From positions 1-61,293 of the forward strand of contig PFAP01000031.1 of the NCBI GenBank assembly GCA_002773615.1: DNA of 61,293 nucleotides, read 5' to 3'. The number at the start of each line of letters is the position of its first letter. The first letter of the stretch is position 1. Of the stretch, positions 8,301 through 42,279 are shown in pieces. A program made the translations under genes and the position numbers. The notes beneath the pieces were generated by a model. The model was not told where the DNA came from, ran no database searches, and saw nothing but the letters and a program-made list of their open reading frames with translations. This stretch comes from Candidatus Falkowbacteria bacterium CG10_big_fil_rev_8_21_14_0_10_39_11. Lineage in GTDB: Bacteria; Patescibacteriota; Patescibacteriia; UBA11705.

Positions 8301-8357
8301 ACCAGTATTGTTAATTGACAACCATGATCACGGCCTAAACGGCCAGGAGGAGGTTCC

Positions 8358-9434
8358 ATGTCCAGTTCGATGAAGCTGTATCGTCTCGCGTCCTACGCTT
8401 TCCTGCTGGCGGTGTTCACCGCCGGCGGCGGACAGCGCTGCACGCCGGTCCCGACCGGACCACCGGTGGAGGACTGCCAGACCGACAGTGAATGCAGTGA
8501 GTTCAACCGCGTCTGCGGTCCGCAGGGGAACTGTATCCCCAGCGGCTGCAGTGACGACGACGGTTGCGCTGATCACGAGACGTGCTACCATGGCACCTGC
8601 TACCCGCAGGATGCGGCCTGGTGCGATACCGCCGACGATTGCTCGGACTACAATCCGTGTACCGTCGACGAGTGTACCCAGGACGGCAAGTGCATCTACA
8701 ATCGTCAGGAGCTGACCGGCGCCGTTTGCGGCTATGACTCGTTCTACGAAGATACGCGTGTGTGCTGGCTCGGTCAGTGTGTCCTGCCTCACGGCTTCTG
8801 CAACCCGTTGGCCGATCAGTCGGCCATCGAGGAGCAGTGCCAGGTTACCGGCGGCGACTCCGACTGGGGTTCGATCTGTATCCCGGACGGCCAGCAGAAG
8901 GGCGGTCGCGCTCTCGGCTGGTGCAATCAGTGCCTGCCGCAGACCGATCCCGAGACCGGCCTGGACATCGGTTGTCCGGCCGAAGCCCCGACTTGCCTGA
9001 CCGAAGAAGTTCCGTTCGTCAACAGCGAATGGACCCGCACGTGGTATTACTGTGGTCAGTCGAGTTGTGAGAGTGATACCGACTGCGCCGAGGGTCGTCG
9101 CTGCGAAGATGGCGCCTGCGTCGAGTACGAGCCCAGAACTTCCAACATCGCTTGCGGGCCGAATATGTATTGCCAGCCCTGCGACCTCGACAGCGAGTGC
9201 CAGGGCTTCGGATACTGCACCGGTCCCTACAACGATGACCCGAGCTGTACCAGCTACGGTATCTGCGATACCTGGGAAGCCCAGACCGTAATCCTCCCGA
9301 CCGGCCGTTGCAACCACAACATCGGCACCTGCATCATGGAGGTGTCACTGGTAGCCGATACCTGCAACGATGGCGACGCTACCACCTGGGACCACTGCGT
9401 TCCGGGAGACGGTTGCGCCAACGATCCCACCTAG
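8358..9434 (+). CDS. GC-rich, cysteine-rich (~41 Cys) secreted protein with C-x-D-x-N-x-C-T-x-D-x-C-type repeats
   Basis: Strong SD site and signal peptide (LASYAFLLAVFTAGG). Repeats include CSDYNPCTVDECTQDGKC, DTDCAEGRRCEDGAC and CNDGDATTWDHCVPGDGC. Composition is far above the flanks. Confidence 0.75.
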   Translation: MSSSMKLYRLASYAFLLAVFTAGGGQRCTPVPTGPPVEDCQTDSECSEFNRVCGPQGNCIPSGCSDDDGCADHETCYHGTCYPQDAAWCDTADDCSDYNPCTVDECTQDGKCIYNRQELTGAVCGYDSFYEDTRVCWLGQCVLPHGFCNPLADQSAIEEQCQVTGGDSDWGSICIPDGQQKGGRALGWCNQCLPQTDPETGLDIGCPAEAPTCLTEEVPFVNSEWTRTWYYCGQSSCESDTDCAEGRRCEDGACVEYEPRTSNIACGPNMYCQPCDLDSECQGFGYCTGPYNDDPSCTSYGICDTWEAQTVILPTGRCNHNIGTCIMEVSLVADTCNDGDATTWDHCVPGDGCANDPT

Positions 9435-24758: not shown

Positions 24759-27299
24759 ATGCCAACGGTTGAAATTGACTATAATTTTTGGTCTGATCTT
24801 TTATCAAATCCAATTTGGGGGCCACTTTTGCTGCTAGCCGTGTTTTTTATTGGCATTATAGTAGCATTTTTTATTTTCCGGCGTATTTTAATTACCGCCA
24901 ATGAACGCAAAAATTCTTTTGATACCATATTATTGTTAGTGGAAGTTCCACAGCTCGCTTCAGAACAAAAAGCCGGAAGTACTGGCGGGGGAGAGCACAG
25001 TATTCAACAAATTCAAGAAAAAATATCAGTGATGGAGACATTTTTATCCGCTTTGGCCGGATTGAAGGCGGAGTCTGGTATGATGGCTTGGCTTCGTGGT
25101 CGCAAAGATGTTTTTAGTTTTGAACTTGTTTCAAATGATAATAAAATATTGTTTTACATTTCTTGTCTCAAAAAAATGCAAGATCTGGTTGAGGATCAGC
25201 TCAACGCCCAGTTTCCGGCAGCCGTAATCGCACCGGTTGCTGACTATAATATATTTAAACCGGATTCTATTATTGACGGCCGAATTATCAAGTTTAAACG
25301 CGAGTTTTACATGCCGGTCAAAACTTACAAAAAGATGGATTCAGATCCTTTGAATTCAATGATCAATGCCCTTGGTCAGGTTGATGAGGGTGATGGAGTT
25401 GCGATTCAAATTGTTTTTCGATCAGCTCCAAAAAAATGGCATGATATGGGTTCCAAGGTTGCTTCCAAGATGCAGCAGGGGATGAAGTATGACAAAGCGC
25501 GCAAGGAAGTTGGCGGTAGTATTGCCAAAACAGCAGCTCGCGAAATTGGTAAATTTGCTGACGCCTTGTTCAATCGAAACAGTGCGGAGAAGGATCAGCT
25601 TGGTGGTAGCTCAGAACACCACCAGCTGTCACCAATGGAGCAGGAGATTATTAAAGGTTTGGAAGAAAAAACCAGCAAAGCTGGCGTTGAAGCTACCATT
25701 CGTGTAATTGCCGCCAGTTCAAAGCAGTCCAAGAGTGAAAATTATCTCAACAACATTACCAATTCATTTACTCAATACAATATTTATCAGTACGGCAATG
25801 CTTTTACGACCATTACGCCAAAATTGAAGAATTTTATCAATGATTTTATTTATCGGAGCTTTGAAAAAAATGTCAGTGTTGTTTTAAATACCGAAGAGCT
25901 CGCCAGTTTATTTCACTTTCCATTAGCTTCAATTACCGAACATCCGGCCATACACTGGCTCGAGGCTCGTCAGGCTCCAGCGCCGCTTGACTTACCCAAA
26001 GAGGGGATTATTCTTGGCGAAAATGTCTATCGTGGCGTCAAACGTGTTATTCGCATCACACCGAAAGATCGTCGTCGTCATATTTATGAAATCGGTAAGA
26101 CCGGTTCTGGTAAATCCTACATGATGACCAACTGGATGTTGCAGGATCTCAAAAATGGCTCTGGTATGTGTGTGATGGATCCACATGGAGAATTAGCTGA
26201 CGATATTATCAAATATGTTCCCAAAGAAAGAGCTGAGGATGTCATTTACTTTGATCCGTCAGATGTGGAGCGACCAATGGCCATGAACTTGCTTGAGTTT
26301 GAACGACCGGAACAAAAAACTTTTGTCGTTAATGAGCTTTTGAACATTTTTGACAAATTATACGACTTGAAATCCACCGGTGGTCCAATGTTTGAATTGT
26401 ATTTCCGTAATGCGGTTCTATTGGTGATGGAAGATCCAGATTCTGGCATGACATTGCTTGAGATCCCACGCGTTTTGGCTGACGAAGAATATCGAGCCTA
26501 CAAACTGTCAAAATGTAAAAATCAAACAGTCAAAGATTTCTGGCAGAAGGAAGCGGAAAAAGCTGGCGGTGAAGCTTCACTAGCCAACATGGTTCCTTAT
26601 ATTACCTCCAAGTTGACTCAGTTTATTTCCAATGATTACATGCGCCCGATTATCGCTCAGCAGACCAGCGCGTTTAGTTTTCGTGAAGCCATGGACCAAA
26701 ATAAGATTATTTTGTGTAACCTTTCTAAAGGTAAGATTGGTAGTTTGAACTCAGATCTATTGGGCATGGTTATTGTTGGTAAACTACTGGCTGCTGCTCT
26801 TAGTCGCGTGGATGTTCCGGAAGAAGAGCGCAATGACTTCTTCTTGTTTATTGATGAGTTTCAAAATTATCTGACCGAGGGGATTTCAATTATTCTATCT
26901 GAGGCTCGAAAATATCGATTGTGTTTGCACATTGCTCACCAGTTTATCGGTCAGCTCACCAAGAATAATGACACAATGATTCGTGATGCGATTTTTGGTA
27001 ACGTTGGTACTTTTATGTCTTTCCGGGTTGGTCCGGATGATGCTGAGTTGTTTGCCAAACAATATTCACCGGTCTTTAGTGAGTTTGATGTTATGAATGT
27101 ACCGAAATTCCAAGTATTTACCAAACTGCTGATCAACAATCAAAATCCACCGGCTTTCAATATGAGAATTCCAGCCAGAGACAAACCCGAACATCCGGAG
27201 ATTGCTGAAGCGATCAAGGAGTTATCCAGATTGAAGTACGGCAAAGATCGTGATATAATTGAGGCAGAAGTCTTAGAGAGAACTAAGATTGATTATTAG
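24759..27299 (+). CDS. Membrane-anchored FtsK/HerA-superfamily ATPase, TraD/VirD4 (type IV coupling protein)-like
   Basis: N-terminal TM helix. Walker A IGKTGSGKSY, Walker B FLFIDEFQNY, and YFDPSDVERPMAMNLLE. Confidence 0.7.
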   Translation: MPTVEIDYNFWSDLLSNPIWGPLLLLAVFFIGIIVAFFIFRRILITANERKNSFDTILLLVEVPQLASEQKAGSTGGGEHSIQQIQEKISVMETFLSALAGLKAESGMMAWLRGRKDVFSFELVSNDNKILFYISCLKKMQDLVEDQLNAQFPAAVIAPVADYNIFKPDSIIDGRIIKFKREFYMPVKTYKKMDSDPLNSMINALGQVDEGDGVAIQIVFRSAPKKWHDMGSKVASKMQQGMKYDKARKEVGGSIAKTAAREIGKFADALFNRNSAEKDQLGGSSEHHQLSPMEQEIIKGLEEKTSKAGVEATIRVIAASSKQSKSENYLNNITNSFTQYNIYQYGNAFTTITPKLKNFINDFIYRSFEKNVSVVLNTEELASLFHFPLASITEHPAIHWLEARQAPAPLDLPKEGIILGENVYRGVKRVIRITPKDRRRHIYEIGKTGSGKSYMMTNWMLQDLKNGSGMCVMDPHGELADDIIKYVPKERAEDVIYFDPSDVERPMAMNLLEFERPEQKTFVVNELLNIFDKLYDLKSTGGPMFELYFRNAVLLVMEDPDSGMTLLEIPRVLADEEYRAYKLSKCKNQTVKDFWQKEAEKAGGEASLANMVPYITSKLTQFISNDYMRPIIAQQTSAFSFREAMDQNKIILCNLSKGKIGSLNSDLLGMVIVGKLLAAALSRVDVPEEERNDFFLFIDEFQNYLTEGISIILSEARKYRLCLHIAHQFIGQLTKNNDTMIRDAIFGNVGTFMSFRVGPDDAELFAKQYSPVFSEFDVMNVPKFQVFTKLLINNQNPPAFNMRIPARDKPEHPEIAEAIKELSRLKYGKDRDIIEAEVLERTKIDY

Positions 27300-33874: not shown

Positions 33875-34153
33875 AAACCCCTTGACAAATTTTTCCTTGA
33901 TTATTCTGAGATTACCGTTCGGATTAATGGAGTAGAACAACGCCTTTGTCTTGACACCGATATTACTTATTCCTATGAAATTTCCCCTTGTGATTCGCCT
34001 GAAACTCACAAATTGACGAATTACCAAGTCCCACCAAAACCTGAAGCAGAAGCTACGAATTGATTAAATAAATTTTAGAATCGGGAATTCGGTTCTTTTT
34101 TGTTTCTCGATTATGGCAATTTTTGATATAATAGATGTAAATAATAACCATCT

Positions 34154-37100
34154 ATGTCTCAAGAAAAAATTTCTTCGTCACGATCAGAAGTCAAAAGACA
34201 ATGCCCGGAAATTATTCCAGCCAAAGAAATCAATGTCGAACCCGGCACACTAATTTTATTAGTCGGTCCACCAGCCTCCGGCAAAAGTACTTTTGCGGCC
34301 GAGCATTTTCCGGTGGAATGTGTTGTTTCTAGTGATTATCTGCGCTCTGAGCTGACCAACAATCCGGGCAATCATATTTTATCTGACTTGGCCTTTGCTC
34401 GCGCCGGTCAACTGGTAGCTTCCAGAATGAAGCAGGGTCGAGTGACTGTGGTTGACGCCATGAATCTCAGACCCAATGCCCGCAAAGCATTTATCAAGTT
34501 TGCTGCAAAAAATAACCGACCGGTCATTGGGGTTCATTTTGATTTTGATCCAGCTGTATTACAGGCCAGAGATTTAGCTCGAGGCGGTAAAGTGGGTGAA
34601 AAAGCGATTGGACGCCGAGCCGGCAAAACCGCTGATATTATCATGCTTCAAAATGATAAAAATCTTGATGAATTGTATGTTGTCGATCAGCCTGACCAAG
34701 AGGTGACTGTTAATCTACCGAAGGCAGAACAAGCGTTATTTGAAACAGAAAAGGATTTTTATTTTGTCGCCACTAAAGCTGAAACTGATTTTTTTGAATA
34801 TGGCCGCCGGTATAAAGAACGCTTGAAAGATGAATCTTTACCAAGATTGGAAGTCCAGTCTGACTCAGTCAATTTTATTACCGACAGCCCGGAAGCAAGA
34901 ACGTTTTTACAAAACAATACCATTCCGACTCAAGTTATTGATTTGGAATTTTTAGTCAAACGTTTTGCTGTCCCCATTGATGATCCTTTGGTCATCAAGA
35001 CAGCTGAACGATTTTTACGTCATCGCTATGAATTAAATTTAGTAACCTTTGTATTGGTTTCAGATAAGACGTCTGAGATAGCTGCTCAGTTAAAAGAAAT
35101 CGCCGGAACTAATTTTGAGCATACCCAGTCAGTTGACATGGACTCTGAGCAGCTAAAAAAAGCGGTTATATCCATCGACAGAGGTGAATTAAAAGATGAG
35201 CCACTATTGATTCTCGGTGACATTCATGGCAGTCTCCAAGCGATGCAAAAAATGCGTCAGGAAGTGATTTTAGAAAAAAAAGATTTCCCAGATTTAGTTG
35301 AACGCAAAATGGTTCTTGTAGGTGATGTTCCGGATCGCGGGCCCTTCAACGCACAATCATTGCTTTATGCTGCCAATCTGGTCAAGCGGGGCAAAGCTGA
35401 ATGGATTCTTGGCAATCATGATGAAAATGTTCGGATCGGATTGCAGATTGTTTGGGATAAATTCTCCGAATCTGATAAAGATTGGGCTACTTGGATCAAG
35501 GAGGATTTCAAGGAAAGCATGCTGCGGGCAGAAGTTCGTTCCCGGGCCACCAGACAATCTATCAAAGAGTTAATTGAAATAATTGATATCTATGCCAAGG
35601 GTACAATGAAAAAACAAAGTCGTAGGCCTAGAATTAGTAAAAATGCTTTCAAAGAATTACTTGATACGATGAATGCTGCGCCCATTTACAAAGAATGGCG
35701 TCATTTGGTAGCGGTTCATGCTTCACTGCCGCATATCCCCAAGGAAGATGAAGAACTTGATGACAAACAAAAGATGATCATGACTCATGGCAAGAAAATG
35801 TGGTTGGGTCCGTCTCAAGAAAATCTCAAATTACGAACCACTACCGCCACCAATCCGGATATAATTGTTGTCGGCGGTCATACTCATGATCGCGAAGTTA
35901 CCATTGATTATCGTTCTGGCACCGTTGGTCTGGACGTTACCGGACCGACTTTACATGCTTTGAAATACCCGGAAATGGAAGTGATCAAACATGACGAGCC
36001 TCATCTGGTGGAGCTGTTTGAAATGGCCAAAAATCCAGAACTGCCCAGTGGTGAAAAACTCTGGCAGCTGGTAAACTTTTTTGAAGACCAGCTTATGCTC
36101 AAACTCAATTCCGGCAAGCGGAATAGCGAGTATGAAGGCCTGACCATTATTAGCTATCATGAATTAACAGAAGTTAACAGTACTTGGGAAAAATTCCCCG
36201 TGCTCAGAAACTTTCGCGGTTTGATTATTGATCGTAAGGGAAACATCGTTGCTCGTCCGTTCAAAAAAACCCACAAAACCGGTATTGAGATTTCTTTGGA
36301 TCAATTGGATTTTAAACCGGAAAAAGTGTTTGAAAAGGTTAATGGTTCCATGGGAATTTGTTATTTTCATGGAGGGCAGTGGCGAATAGCTACCAAATTT
36401 AGCTTTCACAACCCCGGCTACACCGTGCCGGCCACCGAAATGCTGGAACAGATGAATACTAACGCCCTGGATAAAAACAATACGTATTTATTTGAAATTA
36501 TTTTGCCCGAAGACCCGCATGTTGTTGACTATGAGGGGCGCAAGGAATTGGTCTTGTTAAATTCAAATATCACCGCGACCGGCGCAGATTTACCCTGGCA
36601 AAAGGTGGCCGATACGGCCAAAGCCCTTGGCTGTCGGACCGCATATGATTTGACCGATCAATTTGAAGACCTGACAATTGCTGAGATTTATCAAAAAGCT
36701 CAGACCGAGGGAGAATTGCACAATTTAGAAGGTTTGATGGCTATTTATCATGATCATGATACCGGAGAGCAAGTCACGGTCAAAGTAAAAGCCATAGAAT
36801 ATGACAACAAAAAATTTGTCCGCGATCGCATGAAGTGGGACAAACTGCTTGATCGTTTTGACTGGGAAAAACTTGAAATGTCAGATGATGACAAGGATTT
36901 GTTTATGTCTTACAAACGCGACAGTGAGTTTGTTGTTGCCGCATTGGAGACCAGATTGGAATGGATTAGAGATCAGGTAAAGTCAATCATCGAAAATTTC
37001 ATTGGTCAGTACAAAGATATAATCAAAGCCAGCCAATTGCGATATTTAACGTATATTAGAAATGGTGAATCTCAAGCAGATGCTATCACGAAATCAGTCA

Positions 37101-37300
37101 ATGATGCGTTGGTGATGTACCGATCGGCCGGCGGTAAAATGGATAAAGAAGATAAAGGGGTTCTATTGTCTTTTATCCGGAGTATTCGTGGCGGCCAGAA
37201 TCGCATGATGATCGCATACGCCAAAAAGAAAATTACGACCAGAATTCAAACAGAAACAGCCAAACGCGGCCAGGCGTCATTCTGGTTGCTCCCAGAATAA
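34154..37300 (+). CDS. Pnkp-like RNA repair fusion: P-loop polynucleotide kinase + calcineurin-like phosphatase + ATP-dependent RNA ligase
   Basis: Kinase: GPPASGKST and VVDAMNL. Phosphatase: GDIHG, GDVPDRGP, GNHDEN and GGHTH. Ligase: EKVNGSMG (motif I), YLFEIILPED, LVLLN and VTVKVKAIEYD. Confidence 0.75.
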   Translation: MSQEKISSSRSEVKRQCPEIIPAKEINVEPGTLILLVGPPASGKSTFAAEHFPVECVVSSDYLRSELTNNPGNHILSDLAFARAGQLVASRMKQGRVTVVDAMNLRPNARKAFIKFAAKNNRPVIGVHFDFDPAVLQARDLARGGKVGEKAIGRRAGKTADIIMLQNDKNLDELYVVDQPDQEVTVNLPKAEQALFETEKDFYFVATKAETDFFEYGRRYKERLKDESLPRLEVQSDSVNFITDSPEARTFLQNNTIPTQVIDLEFLVKRFAVPIDDPLVIKTAERFLRHRYELNLVTFVLVSDKTSEIAAQLKEIAGTNFEHTQSVDMDSEQLKKAVISIDRGELKDEPLLILGDIHGSLQAMQKMRQEVILEKKDFPDLVERKMVLVGDVPDRGPFNAQSLLYAANLVKRGKAEWILGNHDENVRIGLQIVWDKFSESDKDWATWIKEDFKESMLRAEVRSRATRQSIKELIEIIDIYAKGTMKKQSRRPRISKNAFKELLDTMNAAPIYKEWRHLVAVHASLPHIPKEDEELDDKQKMIMTHGKKMWLGPSQENLKLRTTTATNPDIIVVGGHTHDREVTIDYRSGTVGLDVTGPTLHALKYPEMEVIKHDEPHLVELFEMAKNPELPSGEKLWQLVNFFEDQLMLKLNSGKRNSEYEGLTIISYHELTEVNSTWEKFPVLRNFRGLIIDRKGNIVARPFKKTHKTGIEISLDQLDFKPEKVFEKVNGSMGICYFHGGQWRIATKFSFHNPGYTVPATEMLEQMNTNALDKNNTYLFEIILPEDPHVVDYEGRKELVLLNSNITATGADLPWQKVADTAKALGCRTAYDLTDQFEDLTIAEIYQKAQTEGELHNLEGLMAIYHDHDTGEQVTVKVKAIEYDNKKFVRDRMKWDKLLDRFDWEKLEMSDDDKDLFMSYKRDSEFVVAALETRLEWIRDQVKSIIENFIGQYKDIIKASQLRYLTYIRNGESQADAITKSVNDALVMYRSAGGKMDKEDKGVLLSFIRSIRGGQNRMMIAYAKKKITTRIQTETAKRGQASFWLLPE

Positions 37301-37314
37301 AAATTTTTGTTTGA

Positions 37315-37348
37315 GCCTGCCCGCCGAAGATTCATCGTAGGCGGGAAG
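37315..37348. repeat. REP-like GC-rich hairpin
   Basis: GCCTGCCCGCCgaagattcatcgtaGGCGGGaag. It shares CCGCCGAAG(G)A with the element at 4677. Confidence 0.55.
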
Positions 37349-37377
37349 TATGGGCAATTAAATATATTTAAAAGGTT

Positions 37378-37412
37378 AAGCGGCGATTCGTTTTACGAAT
37401 CGCCGCTTTTGT
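37378..37412. terminator. Strong bidirectional terminator between convergent genes
   Basis: A 13-bp stem AAGCGGCGATTCG-tttta-CGAATCGCCGCTT followed by TTgT. Confidence 0.75.
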
Positions 37413-37453
37413 ACTAGATTTTAAATTGTCGTACATTTTTTGTTTCCTCTCTT

Positions 37454-37801
37454 TTAGCTCTGCGCCAGCTCCCAGAACCGACGGATGTTGCGAATAGCGG
37501 CCAGCATACTGGGCTTGCCAACGCAGTTGTCGGAGTGAACCTTCAGAACTCTCGGTGGCGGGAAGTTGACATCGCAGTCCTCACCGCGGGAGAGCAGAAA
37601 GTACTGCTCCTCAAGCCAGTCGGTCACCGCCGTCCCCTTGATCTCGTCGCCCTGGTCATCCCAGAGGGCAATGTCGTGATCCAGGGAGAGCTCATCGACC
37701 GTACCGGTCTTGAGCATCTCGATCACCTCAGCCGGCGTACGGACGAGCAGCCAACCGACTGGCGGCTTACGGACATCGTCCAGAAAGATCTTGATTCCCA
37801 T
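37454..37801 (-). CDS. GC-rich cREC-like (cyclic-phosphate-processing receiver-like) domain protein
   Basis: KIFLDDVRKPPVGWLLVRTPAEVIEMLKTGTVDELSLDHDI ... VLKVHSDNCVGKPSMLAAIRNI fits the family pattern as I remember it. Hand-counted 58-63% G+C. Confidence 0.6.
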   Translation of the reverse strand: MGIKIFLDDVRKPPVGWLLVRTPAEVIEMLKTGTVDELSLDHDIALWDDQGDEIKGTAVTDWLEEQYFLLSRGEDCDVNFPPPRVLKVHSDNCVGKPSMLAAIRNIRRFWELAQS

Positions 37802-37879: not shown

Positions 37880-37908
37880 ATTATACTACATTTTTATAAA
37901 AATGTCAA
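37880..37908 (-). promoter_or_regulatory. Perfect consensus sigma70 promoter TTGACA-17-TATAAT (minus strand)
   Basis: The reverse complement of 37880-37908 reads TTGACAtttttataaaaatgtagTATAAT. SD site GGAAAGGA precedes the ATG. Confidence 0.65.
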
Positions 37909-38818: not shown

Positions 38819-39568
38819 ATGAAAACAATAAATTCTACATCAAATTCAGTTGTCAAAGAAGTCAAAAAACTGCAACAAAAAAAATATCGGCAGGAAACCG
38901 GTTTGTTTGTCGTGGAAAATTTTAAAATCATCAGTGATGCTTTTAATTCTGGTTACATTCCAGTCAAAATATTTGTTACATCTGATTTTATCAAAAAAAA
39001 TCCGGAAATTGATTCAATAATTGGTAAAGTGGGGGAGGGGTATGAGATAGATGATAAAGTTAATAAATCAATCTCAAATTTGGATTCACCGGCTGGGATA
39101 TTAGCCGTATATTCTCAAATACCGGAAAAGTTTGACTCAGCAGTCAATTCTTTATACTTGAACGCCATCAGTGACCCGGGCAACCTTGGAACATTACTTC
39201 GCAGCGCAGTCGCTTTTGATTTCCATAATGTAATTTTAGACTCAGGCTGCGTTGACCTGTACAATCCCAAAGTTATTCACGCCGCCAAGGACGCGGTTTT
39301 CAAATTGAACTTTTCTTTCTCCAAACAATTGTCTGACTTAAAAGATGATTATGTTATTGTCAGTACGCCGGTTCATGATGGTGGGCGATTTGTTGCAGCC
39401 ACAAAGCCGGTTTGTCTTGTTCTCGGCAGTGAATCTCATGGCGTTGACTCCGAGCTTGAATTGTTAGCCGACCAAAAAGTCACTATAAAAACTTCCGGCC
39501 AAATTGAGTCTTTGAATGTTGCTATGGCCGGAGCTATTATCATGGAGAAGATATTTAATTTTAAATAA
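38819..39568 (+). CDS. TrmH/SpoU-family RNA 2'-O-methyltransferase (RlmB-like)
   Basis: NPGNLGTLLRSAVAF, LVLGSESHGV and IESLNVAMAGAIIM. Confidence 0.8.
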   Translation: MKTINSTSNSVVKEVKKLQQKKYRQETGLFVVENFKIISDAFNSGYIPVKIFVTSDFIKKNPEIDSIIGKVGEGYEIDDKVNKSISNLDSPAGILAVYSQIPEKFDSAVNSLYLNAISDPGNLGTLLRSAVAFDFHNVILDSGCVDLYNPKVIHAAKDAVFKLNFSFSKQLSDLKDDYVIVSTPVHDGGRFVAATKPVCLVLGSESHGVDSELELLADQKVTIKTSGQIESLNVAMAGAIIMEKIFNFK

Positions 39569-39654: not shown

Positions 39655-40257
39655 TTGATGCCAGATATGGTGATTCAGCTTGAAGCTGACCAAATATGGC
39701 GAGGTGATTATTTTGACAGTCTAGAATTTACTGAAAAGTTCCTAGATATTTTTGATGCAATTGAAACAGAAGCTACTGAGATTCCTGGAGGGAATGGTTA
39801 TATATTCAATGACTCCATAAAATTAGTAAATAATAAAATGGTTATTTTGAAGCGAGAATCTGATCCATATCATGATCATGGTGGTGATATTTCATTTCAC
39901 GTTTTGAACCAAGTCGAGATTGATAAAGCTAAAGAAAGGTTGGCTGATACAATAAAAAAATTTGGGGATACAATTGTAGTCCTGAAGGGTGAAATTATTG
40001 ATGCCATGAATAGGGGCGACAATTTTGAACAGTCCACCGGGTCAAAGAGGGATCATGAATCTCTGGGGGAGGATGTGTACCAACAACTAAAAGCATTGGC
40101 CAAAAAATATGATGAACTTGTCAGGGAGGGGAGCACGATTGAAAATAATCGGGTTTCTGGTGGTTCAAGATATTATATTGGCTATCGAACAGAATATGAC
40201 ATGGATGAAGAATCAGAGGCTATCAACAAAGCTCTTGGAGGTTTATATTATAACTAA
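39655..40257 (+). CDS. Hypothetical protein (start uncertain; possibly part of a disrupted longer gene)
   Basis: Track ORF. Open frames abut at both ends: 39576-39683 upstream and 40109-40498 downstream. Confidence 0.45.
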   Translation: MMPDMVIQLEADQIWRGDYFDSLEFTEKFLDIFDAIETEATEIPGGNGYIFNDSIKLVNNKMVILKRESDPYHDHGGDISFHVLNQVEIDKAKERLADTIKKFGDTIVVLKGEIIDAMNRGDNFEQSTGSKRDHESLGEDVYQQLKALAKKYDELVREGSTIENNRVSGGSRYYIGYRTEYDMDEESEAINKALGGLYYN

Positions 40258-40562: not shown

Positions 40563-41693
40563 ATGGAAGAGTTCCCTCAGGAACAACAAGAAAAAAAGCA
40601 GTTCGGTTTGGATGTCACTTTTGACCAATTGGCCGAAGCCTTACCTGATTTTAAAAAAATGATTGGCTTTGACCAAAAGAGCGATTATCATACTTTAACT
40701 TTGGATGTTCATACCAAGGAGTTGGTAGCAGCTTTAGAAAATGATCCATTTATTTTATCATTGGATCCAAAGTTACAGAAATTAATTCGTCTCGCTGGTT
40801 TGATGCATGATTTGGGTAAGACCACAGATATTGGCAAAAAAGGGGAGAGTGGTCGACAGATTCATCCCCAGGATCCGGAAAAAAGACGTTATGCCAACCA
40901 TGAATCTTTTAGTGCCAAGATGAGTCGCCGTATTTTGACAGAAAATTTTGATTTAAAACCCGAAGAGCTCGAATTTGTGGTCAAATTAGTTCGGATGCAC
41001 GGAGATATTATGCAGATCATGAATCATTTTATTGGCATTAAAAAAGATGAAAAAAGTAAACGCAAAAAAAGCCCCAAGACAAGTAAATATGATTTACCTG
41101 AAGGTAAAGATTTGACTTATTATGCAGAACGGATGGAACATGCAGATATGTTGCCAGTAGATTTGTCCATCAAAGATAAATTTAACATTTTATTCGCCTT
41201 TGGTCGAGCTGACAAGGGAGCCAATTATAACGAAGAGACTCGTGAACGGATGGAAAATTCATCATACGAAAATGAAAGATCCAAAATTAAGGACGTGGTT
41301 GAAAAATGTAAAGTTCAGATTGCTGCCATCAGTGAATTGGGCAAAGCCTTGCCTGCGATTGTTGATGCGGTTGAGGGAATGCAAGCTGGTGACAATGCTC
41401 GACCCAAAGTTGTTTTTCATAACGGTGAGTATGTATATGATAAAAATGTTAAAGTGGTTATTCCTGAACAATTGGGGAAAGTGCAGTCACTTGATGAAAA
41501 TCAGAAAAAAAGACTTGTTAAATCATTTATAAATTTTCAGCGCTATTTGGCCCAGGATGAGTTGGGTGCCATCAAGATGGCCAGTCATGGTTTGTTACGA
41601 AAAAATATGAAACTATCTGACGAGCAAATGGTTGATTTTCTAAAAGCGGTCGGTTTGACTGATGAACAGGTCGAAGTTGTCATTGCTAAGTAA
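40563..41693 (+). CDS. HD-domain phosphohydrolase with a C-terminal helical extension
   Basis: YHTLTLDVHT ... GLMHDLGKT ... RMHGD motifs. Confidence 0.65.
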   Translation: MEEFPQEQQEKKQFGLDVTFDQLAEALPDFKKMIGFDQKSDYHTLTLDVHTKELVAALENDPFILSLDPKLQKLIRLAGLMHDLGKTTDIGKKGESGRQIHPQDPEKRRYANHESFSAKMSRRILTENFDLKPEELEFVVKLVRMHGDIMQIMNHFIGIKKDEKSKRKKSPKTSKYDLPEGKDLTYYAERMEHADMLPVDLSIKDKFNILFAFGRADKGANYNEETRERMENSSYENERSKIKDVVEKCKVQIAAISELGKALPAIVDAVEGMQAGDNARPKVVFHNGEYVYDKNVKVVIPEQLGKVQSLDENQKKRLVKSFINFQRYLAQDELGAIKMASHGLLRKNMKLSDEQMVDFLKAVGLTDEQVEVVIAK

Positions 41694-41775
41694 TTTGCAA
41701 TTATTGCTTTTGTGTTGTAATATTATTGGAGTCCCCAAACAAACAGCTCTTTGTCTAGAGCGAGTAGGAGGTAGT

Positions 41776-42279
41776 ATGGGCCAGACTTTCAAGTCAGACT
41801 TTTTTCATGGTTTGAGTGAGGCTGACATTGCCACTGTGTTAATGTATTTTGAAGAAGCGGAATTTTTGAAGGATACGATGCTGATGACAGAAGGCGTAGC
41901 TGGCGATGAGATGATGCTCATCATGACTGGCCGAGTTTCAGTCAAGGTCCAGGGTTATTACGTTAAGAGTTTTGGCGCCGGTACGATTATGGGTGAAATT
42001 TCCCTGATTGATAATGGTGCGCGTACAGCGTCAATATTTGCTTTGACTGATGTCGCGGTACTTAAACTCACCACAACCAGCTGGTTACGATTGCAAAATG
42101 AGCAGCCGAAGATTTTTGCCAAGCTCAATTTCAATCTGAATTGCATCATGGCCCAAAAGTTCCGCAGTACAGTTCAAATGATCCATCAGCTACACGCTGA
42201 AGTTCATAAGCTAGAAGCCAAGCTTGGCGATGTTTCTTTCAAGAAGTTCAAACAGATTCTGACCAAGCCGCTGTTTTAA
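41776..42279 (+). CDS. Stand-alone cyclic-nucleotide-binding (cNMP) domain protein
   Basis: ATG at 41776 is preceded by gtaggagg. GEISLIDNGARTASIFALTDVAVLKL is a phosphate-binding-cassette-like motif. Confidence 0.7.
   Translation: MGQTFKSDFFHGLSEADIATVLMYFEEAEFLKDTMLMTEGVAGDEMMLIMTGRVSVKVQGYYVKSFGAGTIMGEISLIDNGARTASIFALTDVAVLKLTTTSWLRLQNEQPKIFAKLNFNLNCIMAQKFRSTVQMIHQLHAEVHKLEAKLGDVSFKKFKQILTKPLF

Follow-up and report, generated by a model that had tools for sequence, protein, structure and literature searches.

Three classical forms of ATP-dependent RNA repair are known, namely, the separate Pnkp and Rnl1 enzymes of phage T4, the bacterial complexes gated by Hen1 (Pnkp-Hen1 and Pnkp1-Rnl-Hen1), and Trl1 of eukaryotes. 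In both systems that depend on Hen1, an insertion domain disables the ligase, and Hen1 overcomes this by locking that domain open (PMC4411300; PMC3675462). Here, we analyzed a gene at positions 34154..37300 (+) of contig PFAP01000031.1 from Candidatus Falkowbacteria bacterium CG10_big_fil_rev_8_21_14_0_10_39_11 (61,293 nucleotides [nt], all of which is termed the window below). Its 1048-amino acid (aa) product is a predicted fusion of 5'-kinase, metallophosphatase, and RNA ligase, and it converges on an open reading frame (ORF) at 37454..37801 (-) for a 115-aa cyclic-phosphate-processing receiver-like (cREC) protein. An earlier note on this DNA had read the fusion as a Pnkp without its Hen1 partner. 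We consider it probable that the fusion is an autonomous, Hen1-independent RNA heal-and-seal enzyme, i.e., a hybrid of Pnkp-type healing and T4 Rnl1-type sealing. Together with compact cousins in phages and archaea, it would represent a fourth arrangement, in which a Pnkp-type healing unit and an ungated Rnl1-type ligase share one chain, and which would leave no protective methyl mark on the RNA that it seals.

All ten motif strings on which the earlier note was built were found, in the order it gave: GPPASGKST (aa 38-46) and VVDAMNL (aa 99-105) in the kinase; GDIHG (355-359), GDVPDRGP (390-397), GNHDEN (420-425), and GGHTH (574-578) in the phosphatase; and EKVNGSMG (727-734), FEIILPED (780-787), LVLLN (799-803), and VKVKAIEY (876-883) in the ligase. 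They are not chance occurrences, because they are accompanied by Pfam matches and by catalytic positions that are invariant across 24 long-form homologues, aligned down to about 35% identity. The reading of the kinase and phosphatase as Pnkp-type held, with PDB, BLASTP, and hhalign searches in agreement. More specifically, the kinase matched Pfam AAA_33 (aa 33-146, E 1e-20) and the Pnkp kinase of Clostridium thermocellum (CthPnkp; PDB 4gp7 and related entries, 7e-16), and the phosphatase matched the calcineurin-like family Metallophos (aa 350-579, E 2e-10) and, weakly, the CthPnkp phosphatase (PDB 4j6o, 0.014). By BLASTP against a classical Pnkp recovered in our homology search (P0011; 831 aa, carrying PF16542), identity was 35% for the kinase (2e-16) and 30% for the phosphatase (7e-9), and in hhalign a profile of aa 1-612 was collinear with P0011 residues 3-404 (99.9% probability, E 3e-31). 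The equivalog for full-length bacterial Pnkp, TIGR04075, was not reached (118.5 bits versus a cutoff of 750).

The key kinase residues (K44, S45, D61, R64, D101, R139, and R143) are invariant or conservatively substituted in the 24 long forms (R64K in two and R139Q in three). Similarly, the nine residues essential in the CthPnkp phosphatase, i.e., Asp187, His189, Asp233, Arg237, Asn263, His264, His323, His376, and Asp392 (PMC3675462), all have equivalents in the window protein (D356, H358, D391, R395, N421, H422, H522, H576, and D594, respectively), the phosphatase of which also carries a helical insertion at about aa 430-510. His264 of CthPnkp is described as a determinant of its 2',3'-cyclic phosphodiesterase activity (PMC3675462), and since H422 is its counterpart, the phosphatase of the fusion should open cyclic ends by itself.

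The sealing half is of another type. Membership in the Pnkp (Rnl4) ligases, as the Pnkp-type reading in the earlier note would imply, was rejected: the Pnkp ligase family PF16542 had no Pfam match in the window protein or any relative, a C-terminal 436-aa profile showed no similarity to P0011 in hhalign (probability 0.4%), and motifs I and IV are spaced by 131 aa in the window ligase versus 217 aa in P0011. The corresponding K99-to-E227 distance in T4 Rnl1 is 128 aa. Direct searches of Pfam, NCBIfam, and PDB sequences with the C-terminal 430 aa of the window protein returned nothing significant, so the assignment required a family profile, a structure model, and PHROGs. The clearest ligase result came from PHROGs, in which residues 653-949 matched phrog_562 ("RNA ligase and tail fiber protein attachment catalyst", 4e-34), which we take to be the T4 gp63/Rnl1 family, with the match extending to position 317 of the 377-position profile. 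The best PDB sequence match of the ligase family profile was T4 RNA ligase 1 (2c5u, 0.023), in an alignment spanning the Rnl1 N-subdomain (RG...RP..K), motif I (EKaNGS versus TKEDGS), motif III, and motif IIIa, and PF09511 (RNA_lig_T4_1) was significant in one of eight family members (1.8e-10). Likewise, Foldseek searches with an AlphaFold model of the ligase (predicted local distance difference test [pLDDT] 79) retrieved T4 Rnl1 (1e-9), then the ligase domain of fungal Trl1 (Trl1-LIG, 2e-5), and then Rnl3 enzymes, and Pnkp ligase structures were not among its matches. In these Foldseek comparisons of the ligase model, the global template modeling (TM) score was only 0.40-0.45, with a large root-mean-square deviation. 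In T4 Rnl1, the C-terminal domain confers tRNA specificity and sets Rnl1 apart from Rnl4 and Rnl6; the C-terminal domain of the window ligase (aa 881-1048) was all-helical in the AlphaFold2 (AF2) model, and some Rnl1-family matches reach profile positions 345-394.

At residue level, the catalytic positions documented for Rnl1/Trl1 (PMC6379707) map to R688, K705, K728 (motif I), K748 (Ia), E781 (III), E859/G860 (IV), and K877/K879 (V). K728 (within the motif I sequence EKVNGS), K748, E781, E859-G860, and K877/K879 are invariant in the 24 sequences, as are R688 and K705, the equivalents of Rnl1 Arg54 and Lys75, which together with H707 we count among the N-subdomain residues. By sequence and model, the predicted ligase is thus T4 Rnl1-like and not of the Rnl4 type.

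Between kinase and phosphatase, the earlier note had recorded an unassigned insert of ~170 aa. The insert was confirmed (about 165 aa relative to classical Pnkp), but the label "unassigned" no longer fits, as the segment appears to adopt a degenerate P-loop kinase fold. In hhalign, residues 183-345 align with nothing in Pnkp or in the compact phage homologue Twort ORF008 described below, and all 24 long forms carry such an insert (159-198 aa). Modeled alone (AF2 with an eight-sequence alignment; pLDDT 89.7), it forms a 36-residue helix followed by an alpha/beta domain, for which the best Foldseek match was the CthPnkp kinase (4jt2; E 1e-3, probability 1.0, TM 0.46), followed by adenosine 5'-phosphosulfate, gluconate, and adenylate kinases and by the Pnkp1 chain of 4xru. 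None of the 24 family members has a GK[ST] P-loop in the insert, and the Walker-B Asp position is hydrophobic. From the model, we conclude that the insert is probably a duplicated, inactivated kinase-fold domain (a pseudokinase), most likely serving as a scaffold or RNA-binding spacer. CthPnk crystallizes as a homodimer (PMC3675462), which makes a putative intramolecular kinase-pseudokinase pair an attractive reading, and by that analogy the pseudokinase could possibly stand in for the kinase-kinase dimer of Pnkp. If so classified, the duplication offers a clean case of domain duplication and inactivation within a repair enzyme.

Regarding mechanism, we infer every step from homology. The metallophosphatase, with its retained phosphate-binding histidine (H422), would open and remove 2',3'-cyclic, 2'-, or 3'-phosphates to leave a 3'-OH, and the P-loop kinase would phosphorylate the 5'-OH. 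The ligase would then be adenylylated on K728, pass the AMP to the 5'-phosphate, and join that end to the 3'-OH. The enzyme probably repairs tRNA or rRNA that ribotoxins or phage-related nucleases have cut; cREC may assist the fusion but would not be required.

Several observations weigh against this proposal. PF09511 is below significance by Pfam in the window protein itself, and the position of Rnl1 Phe76, the sole catalytic position to differ, is occupied by Thr706/His707. In the phosphatase, the metal-binding histidine of GDxHG (H358) is Gln in 9 of the 24 long forms, the remaining phosphatase positions being invariant. The insert aligns weakly with the protein's own kinase domain in hhalign (E 3e-4, probability 18%), pairing "SVNFITD--SPEARTFLQNN" with "LILLVGPPASGKSTFAAEHF". 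Moreover, we infer RNA rather than DNA as the substrate from the ligase family only, and the searchable literature holds no biochemical data on the long-form or the compact Twort-type family. The H358Q substitution (window nt 35225-35227) is confined to the Uhrbacteria-type clade.

The long form is rare. A word-indexed search of 5.8 billion clusters returned only about ten full-length relatives, and an exhaustive search of 1.8 billion representatives with a ligase-module profile returned about a dozen long-form clusters (1016-1260 aa), below which scores fall sharply to thousands of proteins of ~350 aa; those checked belong to PF09511. Among 11 fusion loci in a reference-genome scan, 8 carry lineage names of the candidate phyla radiation (CPR; Patescibacteria), i.e., Falkowbacteria, Uhrbacteria, Sungbacteria, Yanofskybacteria, Vogelbacteria, WWE3, and Parcubacteria. 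The other three (L011, L012, and L013) are metagenome-assembled genomes (MAGs) labeled "uncultured Gammaproteobacteria" or "Pseudomonadales"; at least L013 (same contig as L006) has UvrC, sigma-70, and A2M-like giant protein neighbors as in an Uhrbacteria locus, suggestive of mislabeled bins. The fusion is an accessory gene of patchy occurrence in CPR bacteria, from which all 24 aligned long forms come, and the long form is CPR-specific. One relative (P0014, L022:137-3919; 1260 aa) has five modules, the extra one being an N-terminal 2H "Swiss-army-knife" cyclic phosphoesterase (PF22547, 3.5e-17). In the Uhrbacteria-type clade (L002, L006, L007, and L014), the fusion ends a uvrB-(HIT)-uvrA-uvrC-(RNase III) string and precedes an extracytoplasmic function-type sigma factor; the HIT-family gene lies between uvrB and uvrA at L002:2478-2957.

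Compact proteins of 740-800 aa (P0053, P0125, and P0150) contain AAA_33, Metallophos, and RNA_lig_T4_1 and lack the insert, and one of them, the archaeal P0150, lies on a contig beside the genes for ribosomal proteins L15e and S8e. The same three domains occur in ORF008 of Staphylococcus phage Twort (YP_238673.1, phrog_8238; 754 aa), which is annotated only as "RNA ligase". In hhalign, the family of the window protein and Twort ORF008 are collinear over 646 columns (99.5%; residues 33-894 versus 3-699), and the window protein matches phrog_8238 in three stretches (3e-23). The phage and archaeal proteins imply that the hybrid of Pnkp-type healing and Rnl1-type sealing is a pre-existing arrangement, and by sequence the CPR long form appears as an expanded subfamily of the compact kinase-Metallophos-Rnl1 family. 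The earlier note had spoken of a non-canonical heal-and-seal locus in a reduced genome; the kinase-metallophosphatase-ligase order bears out its first half, but this domain order is not confined to reduced genomes. We found no paper on the kinase-Metallophos-Rnl1 architecture in the searchable literature, beyond the reach of which lies the survey of Burroughs & Aravind 2016.

Compared with bacterial Pnkp, the fusion has the same N-to-C order of 5'-kinase, binuclear metallophosphatase, and ligase, and its kinase and phosphatase are true homologues. In contrast, the Pnkp ligase is of the Rnl4/PF16542 type with an alpha-helical Hen1-binding insertion and has an adjacent, co-oriented Hen1 gene, whereas the window protein pairs an insertion-free, Rnl1-like ligase with an added pseudokinase of ~165 aa and the helical insertion in the phosphatase, and has no Hen1. 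The compact form (Twort ORF008 and archaeal P0150) is identical in domain order, but it is ~25% identical in sequence, lacks the pseudokinase and the expanded phosphatase insertion, and occurs in phages and archaea rather than in CPR bacteria. Phage T4 Pnkp and Rnl1 share with the fusion the predicted healing to 3'-OH/5'-P and Rnl1-type sealing without a 2'-phosphate or methyl mark, Rnl1 being the closest structural and profile match of the window ligase; in T4, however, healing is carried out by another protein, the phosphatase of which is of the HAD (DxDxT) type, whereas the fusion is one chain with a metallophosphoesterase. Fungal and plant Trl1/AtRNL (LIG-KIN-CPD; Rnl6) is likewise a trifunctional single polypeptide with a KxNG motif I and an Rnl1-like N-subdomain, although its domain order is reversed and its 2H cyclic phosphodiesterase leaves a 2'-phosphate, unlike the metallophosphatase of the fusion; neither the Trl1 C-domain nor its 2'-PO4 requirement was detected in the window protein. 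Pnkp1-Rnl-Hen1 of Capnocytophaga gingivalis also joins kinase-phosphatase healing to an RNA ligase that does not come from classical Pnkp, but as three separate proteins, with a HAD phosphatase and a ligase that has an insertion domain and needs Hen1. What we find most interesting is the putative pseudokinase duplication, the ungated ligase on a Pnkp healing unit, and the opportunity to test cREC. The presence of a repair enzyme of ~1000 residues as an accessory gene in some ultra-small CPR bacteria implies exposure to RNA-cutting toxins or phage-related nucleases.

As the earlier note had suggested, the convergent 115-aa neighbor is a bona fide cREC domain protein: its match to PF20274 (cREC_REC) spans model positions 1-87 of 88 (Pfam; E 2.2e-20, 73.6 bits versus a cutoff of 27), and it also matches phrog_1479 (1.7e-16). 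Its acidic residues in FLDDVR (D8, D9) and SLDHD (D41, D43), which are kept in P0013, may form a receiver-like active site by analogy with the description in PMC9503650. In phages and cells, cREC has been linked contextually to T4-like RNA ligases, nucleotide kinases, and calcineurin-like phosphoesterases, and is a predicted cyclic phosphodiesterase analogous to 2H (PMC7824862, PMC9503650). Characteristic of cREC is a gene context of RNA repair or ADP-ribose processing, never with a histidine kinase; the window cREC adjoins the fusion, but its orthologue in another Falkowbacteria genome (L021) has no repair gene nearby. In the phage cREC neighborhoods (Escherichia phage V5 / Proteus phage Mydo type; Iyer et al. 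2021, 2022), cREC likewise adjoins a T4-like RNA ligase, a nucleotide kinase, and a calcineurin-like phosphoesterase, whereas in the window these enzymes form one cellular protein, the two genes are convergent, their linkage is known from one genome only, and sirtuin, KptA, MazG, and Nudix genes are lacking.

The earlier note had proposed to look in relatives for the adjacency of fusion, cREC, HExxH, and TrmH genes and had named a lack of conservation as an outcome counting against its reading; the adjacency is indeed not conserved. No cREC was found beside the fusion at the 16 other fusion-bearing loci by precomputed Pfam matches, tblastn, or a two-sequence hidden Markov model run on six-frame ORFs, the last even at E<=10. 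In L001 and L009, an unannotated 113-aa gene precedes the fusion; it was considered as a cREC candidate and rejected. In the 85 ORFs flanking the fusion at 16 distinct loci, no family occurs more than three times (the count for UvrC, an HI0933-like flavoprotein, and a RimK-like ATP-grasp), and none of the partners sought there (Hen1, cREC, 2H, SpoU, KptA, and Nudix) recurs; the fusion has no obligate partner gene. The window cREC has a single close homologue (75% identity by BLASTP), in L021, the nearest relative, which is syntenic with the window (DnaX 69%, GreA 68%, LytR-like 73%, and cREC 77% by tblastn; HExxH protein 46%). L021 keeps cREC at the same site together with the adjoining HExxH gene (244/245 aa), the only cREC neighbor conserved there, but not the fusion, in the position of which are a pilin-like gene and a coiled-coil ORF containing a run of 190 N (L021:11043-11232). 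No fusion-like sequence flanks this assembly gap, and the absence of the fusion from that exact spot is probable, within the limits that the gap sets. In the window, a 35-codon remnant of the pilin-like gene lies upstream of the fusion (Table 1), indicating a recent replacement or insertion; by sequence, the fusion would have come to lie beside cREC through a lineage-specific event of this kind. The HExxH and cREC genes (L021:9094-10336) are a conserved pair in this genome and one Falkowbacteria MAG, and each protein has only one homologue in 5.8 billion clusters.

How do other explanations fare against these data? In one of them, cREC would be a dedicated 2',3'-cyclic phosphodiesterase, the fusion phosphatase would remove the resulting monoester, and kinase and ligase would finish the repair, making the adjacency functional despite the convergent orientation. 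The contextual links of cREC to just these enzyme classes (PMC7824862, PMC9503650) speak for it, and so does P0014, in which a fused 2H domain, of the class that cREC is proposed to parallel, suggests that some family members recruit a dedicated opener of cyclic phosphates; in addition, both gene families are rare, so that their chance adjacency is a priori unlikely. Yet the adjacency is found in the window only, L021 has retained HExxH and cREC at this site without the fusion, the two genes are convergent and in separate transcription units, the phosphatase has every residue required for cyclic phosphodiesterase activity of its own, and the activity of cREC is itself a prediction in the literature. 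We regard this two-component scheme as unlikely. Somewhat more doubtful still is the idea that the CPR long form is a distinct, fully autonomous machine, in which the kinase-pseudokinase pair replaces the Pnkp homodimer and positions RNA ends, with 2H (P0014) and cREC as interchangeable add-ons; if this were true, the window would hold the first cellular pair that could show cREC to be an RNA 2',3'-cyclic phosphodiesterase working with a defined ligase. Processing of DNA or mixed DNA/RNA break ends, with a PNKP and ligase acting on DNA nicks in connection with nucleotide excision repair, seems very improbable: the gene follows uvrB-uvrA-uvrC, directly or behind RNase III, in the Uhrbacteria-type clade (L002, L006/L007, and L014), and PDB 4mde is a product complex of the CthPnkp kinase with GDP and DNA, but the uvr linkage is limited to that one clade (3 of the 85 flanking ORFs), the sealing domain is that of an Rnl1-family RNA ligase, and the healing unit is of the RNA-repair Pnkp type.

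There is, lastly, the matter of Hen1. Its absence nearby, on which the earlier note had remarked, was confirmed among the window neighbors scanned, and it is not among the recurrent families of the related loci. The premise that the ligase depends on Hen1 did not survive, as the Rnl1-like window ligase has no Hen1-binding insertion; with the gating module absent, the ligase is expected to be autonomous, and the missing Hen1 is expected rather than anomalous because the module that imposes the need for it is lacking. Should the classical Pnkp-Hen1 logic apply nonetheless, the ligase would be inactive alone, and the TrmH/SpoU gene would supply 2'-O-methylation and activation. This SpoU-family 2'-O-methyltransferase gene is indeed 1 kb away, and one WWE3 locus also has a SpoU gene, at a distance of ~3.8 kb from its fusion gene. 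Against such a substitution, the ligase is not Rnl4-type and lacks the module that mediates the effect of Hen1; the methylase is a SPOUT enzyme with an rRNA-substrate-binding domain and RlmB as its best NCBIfam match (below cutoff), and reads by sequence as a RlmB-like SPOUT rRNA/tRNA methylase; its gene is on a different transcription unit and its own strand, with two other genes between; and L021 does not have it close to cREC, nor is SpoU a recurrent neighbor of the fusion. Of the proposal in the earlier note, membership in the SpoU family was upheld by Pfam, but not a Hen1-like role, since nothing links the methylase to the fusion. We hold this substitution to be already largely refuted and give it next to no credence, in favor of an autonomous hybrid of Pnkp-type healing and Rnl1-type sealing.

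The features of the locus are compiled in Table 1. By sequence, the fusion appears to be monocistronic, with fusion and cREC as separate transcription units. The hairpin upstream of the fusion gene would insulate it from the LytR-like gene, and we read TGaTATAAT as its putative own promoter, which a two-hexamer promoter scan missed because no -35 element is present. Downstream, the shared bidirectional terminator described in the earlier note was recovered as a 14-bp stem with A-run/U-run, and on folding, the 153-nt spacer between fusion and cREC forms two hairpins (free energy -48 kcal/mol, z -4.4). The perfect sigma-70 promoter upstream of cREC implies that cREC is a transcription unit of its own. 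PADLOC made no defense-system assignment for the fusion, cREC, or the HExxH protein.

Table 1. Features of the fusion gene and its surroundings (window positions).
Feature	Position	Strand	Evidence
Whole fusion gene: kinase / putative pseudokinase / metallophosphatase / Rnl1-like ligase	34154..37300	+	Domain searches, homologue alignment
Module 1, Pnkp-type P-loop polynucleotide 5'-kinase, aa 26-182	34229..34699	+	PDB, Pfam, hhalign
Module 2, long helix and degenerate P-loop-kinase-fold domain (putative pseudokinase), aa 183-345	34700..35188	+	AF2, Foldseek
Module 3, Pnkp-type binuclear metallophosphoesterase, aa 346-612	35189..35989	+	Pfam, PDB, hhalign
Module 4a, Rnl1-type adenylyltransferase, aa 613-880	35990..36793	+	phrog_562, Foldseek, profile
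Module 4b, all-helical ligase C-terminal domain, aa 881-1048	36794..37297	+	AF2 secondary structure
Pilin-like gene remnant, 35 codons	33893..33997	+	tblastn of 114-aa ORF of L021: 60% identity over 35 aa, E 8e-9
Terminator-like hairpin followed by T-run, 5' of fusion gene	34077..34096	+	Terminator scan, sequence
Extended -10-like element TGaTATAAT, 21 nt 5' of ATG	34124..34132	+	Sequence reading
Second hairpin in spacer between convergent genes	37308-37364		
14-bp GC-rich hairpin with A-run/U-run flanks, bidirectional terminator-like, common to convergent genes	37378..37408		
Stand-alone cREC domain protein, 115 aa, convergent with fusion	37454..37801	-	PF20274, phrog_1479
Perfect sigma-70 consensus TTGACA-17-TATAAT, upstream of cREC	37880..37908	-	
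HExxH (HEARH) orphan protein, 269 aa	37978..38787	-	No significant family in Pfam
SpoU_methylase and MRM3-like substrate-binding domain (TrmH/SpoU gene)	38819..39568		Pfam

Elsewhere in the window, an HD-domain protein (40563-41693, +) matches Cas3-HD models (PADLOC, 6e-9), and its gene overlaps by 32 nt that of a cyclic-nucleotide-binding protein (41662-42279, +), the cyclic nucleotide monophosphate-binding domain of which resembles those of Pycsar TIR effectors (2e-13); neither CRISPR nor a cyclase gene was noted near 40563-42279. A 200-aa protein (39655-40257, +) gave a weak TIR-like (ThsB) PADLOC match (8e-4) and a weak Metallophos_3 Pfam match (0.007), both of which are probably not meaningful. 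The only GC-rich patch of the window (51% versus about 39%), at 8358-9434 (+), encodes a 358-aa cysteine-rich protein with no Pfam family, the hydrophobic N-terminus of which looks like a secretion signal; no tandem repeat was found in the GC-rich 8-10 kb stretch, and the overlapping antisense ORF at 8328-9317 (-) is probably a by-product of GC content. Finally, an 846-aa protein with TrwB/TraG-type coupling-protein domains is encoded at 24759-27299 (+), and the presence of a similar gene (DUF8128 with T4SS-DNA_transf) in the syntenic relative suggests that it is chromosomal rather than the sign of a mobile element.

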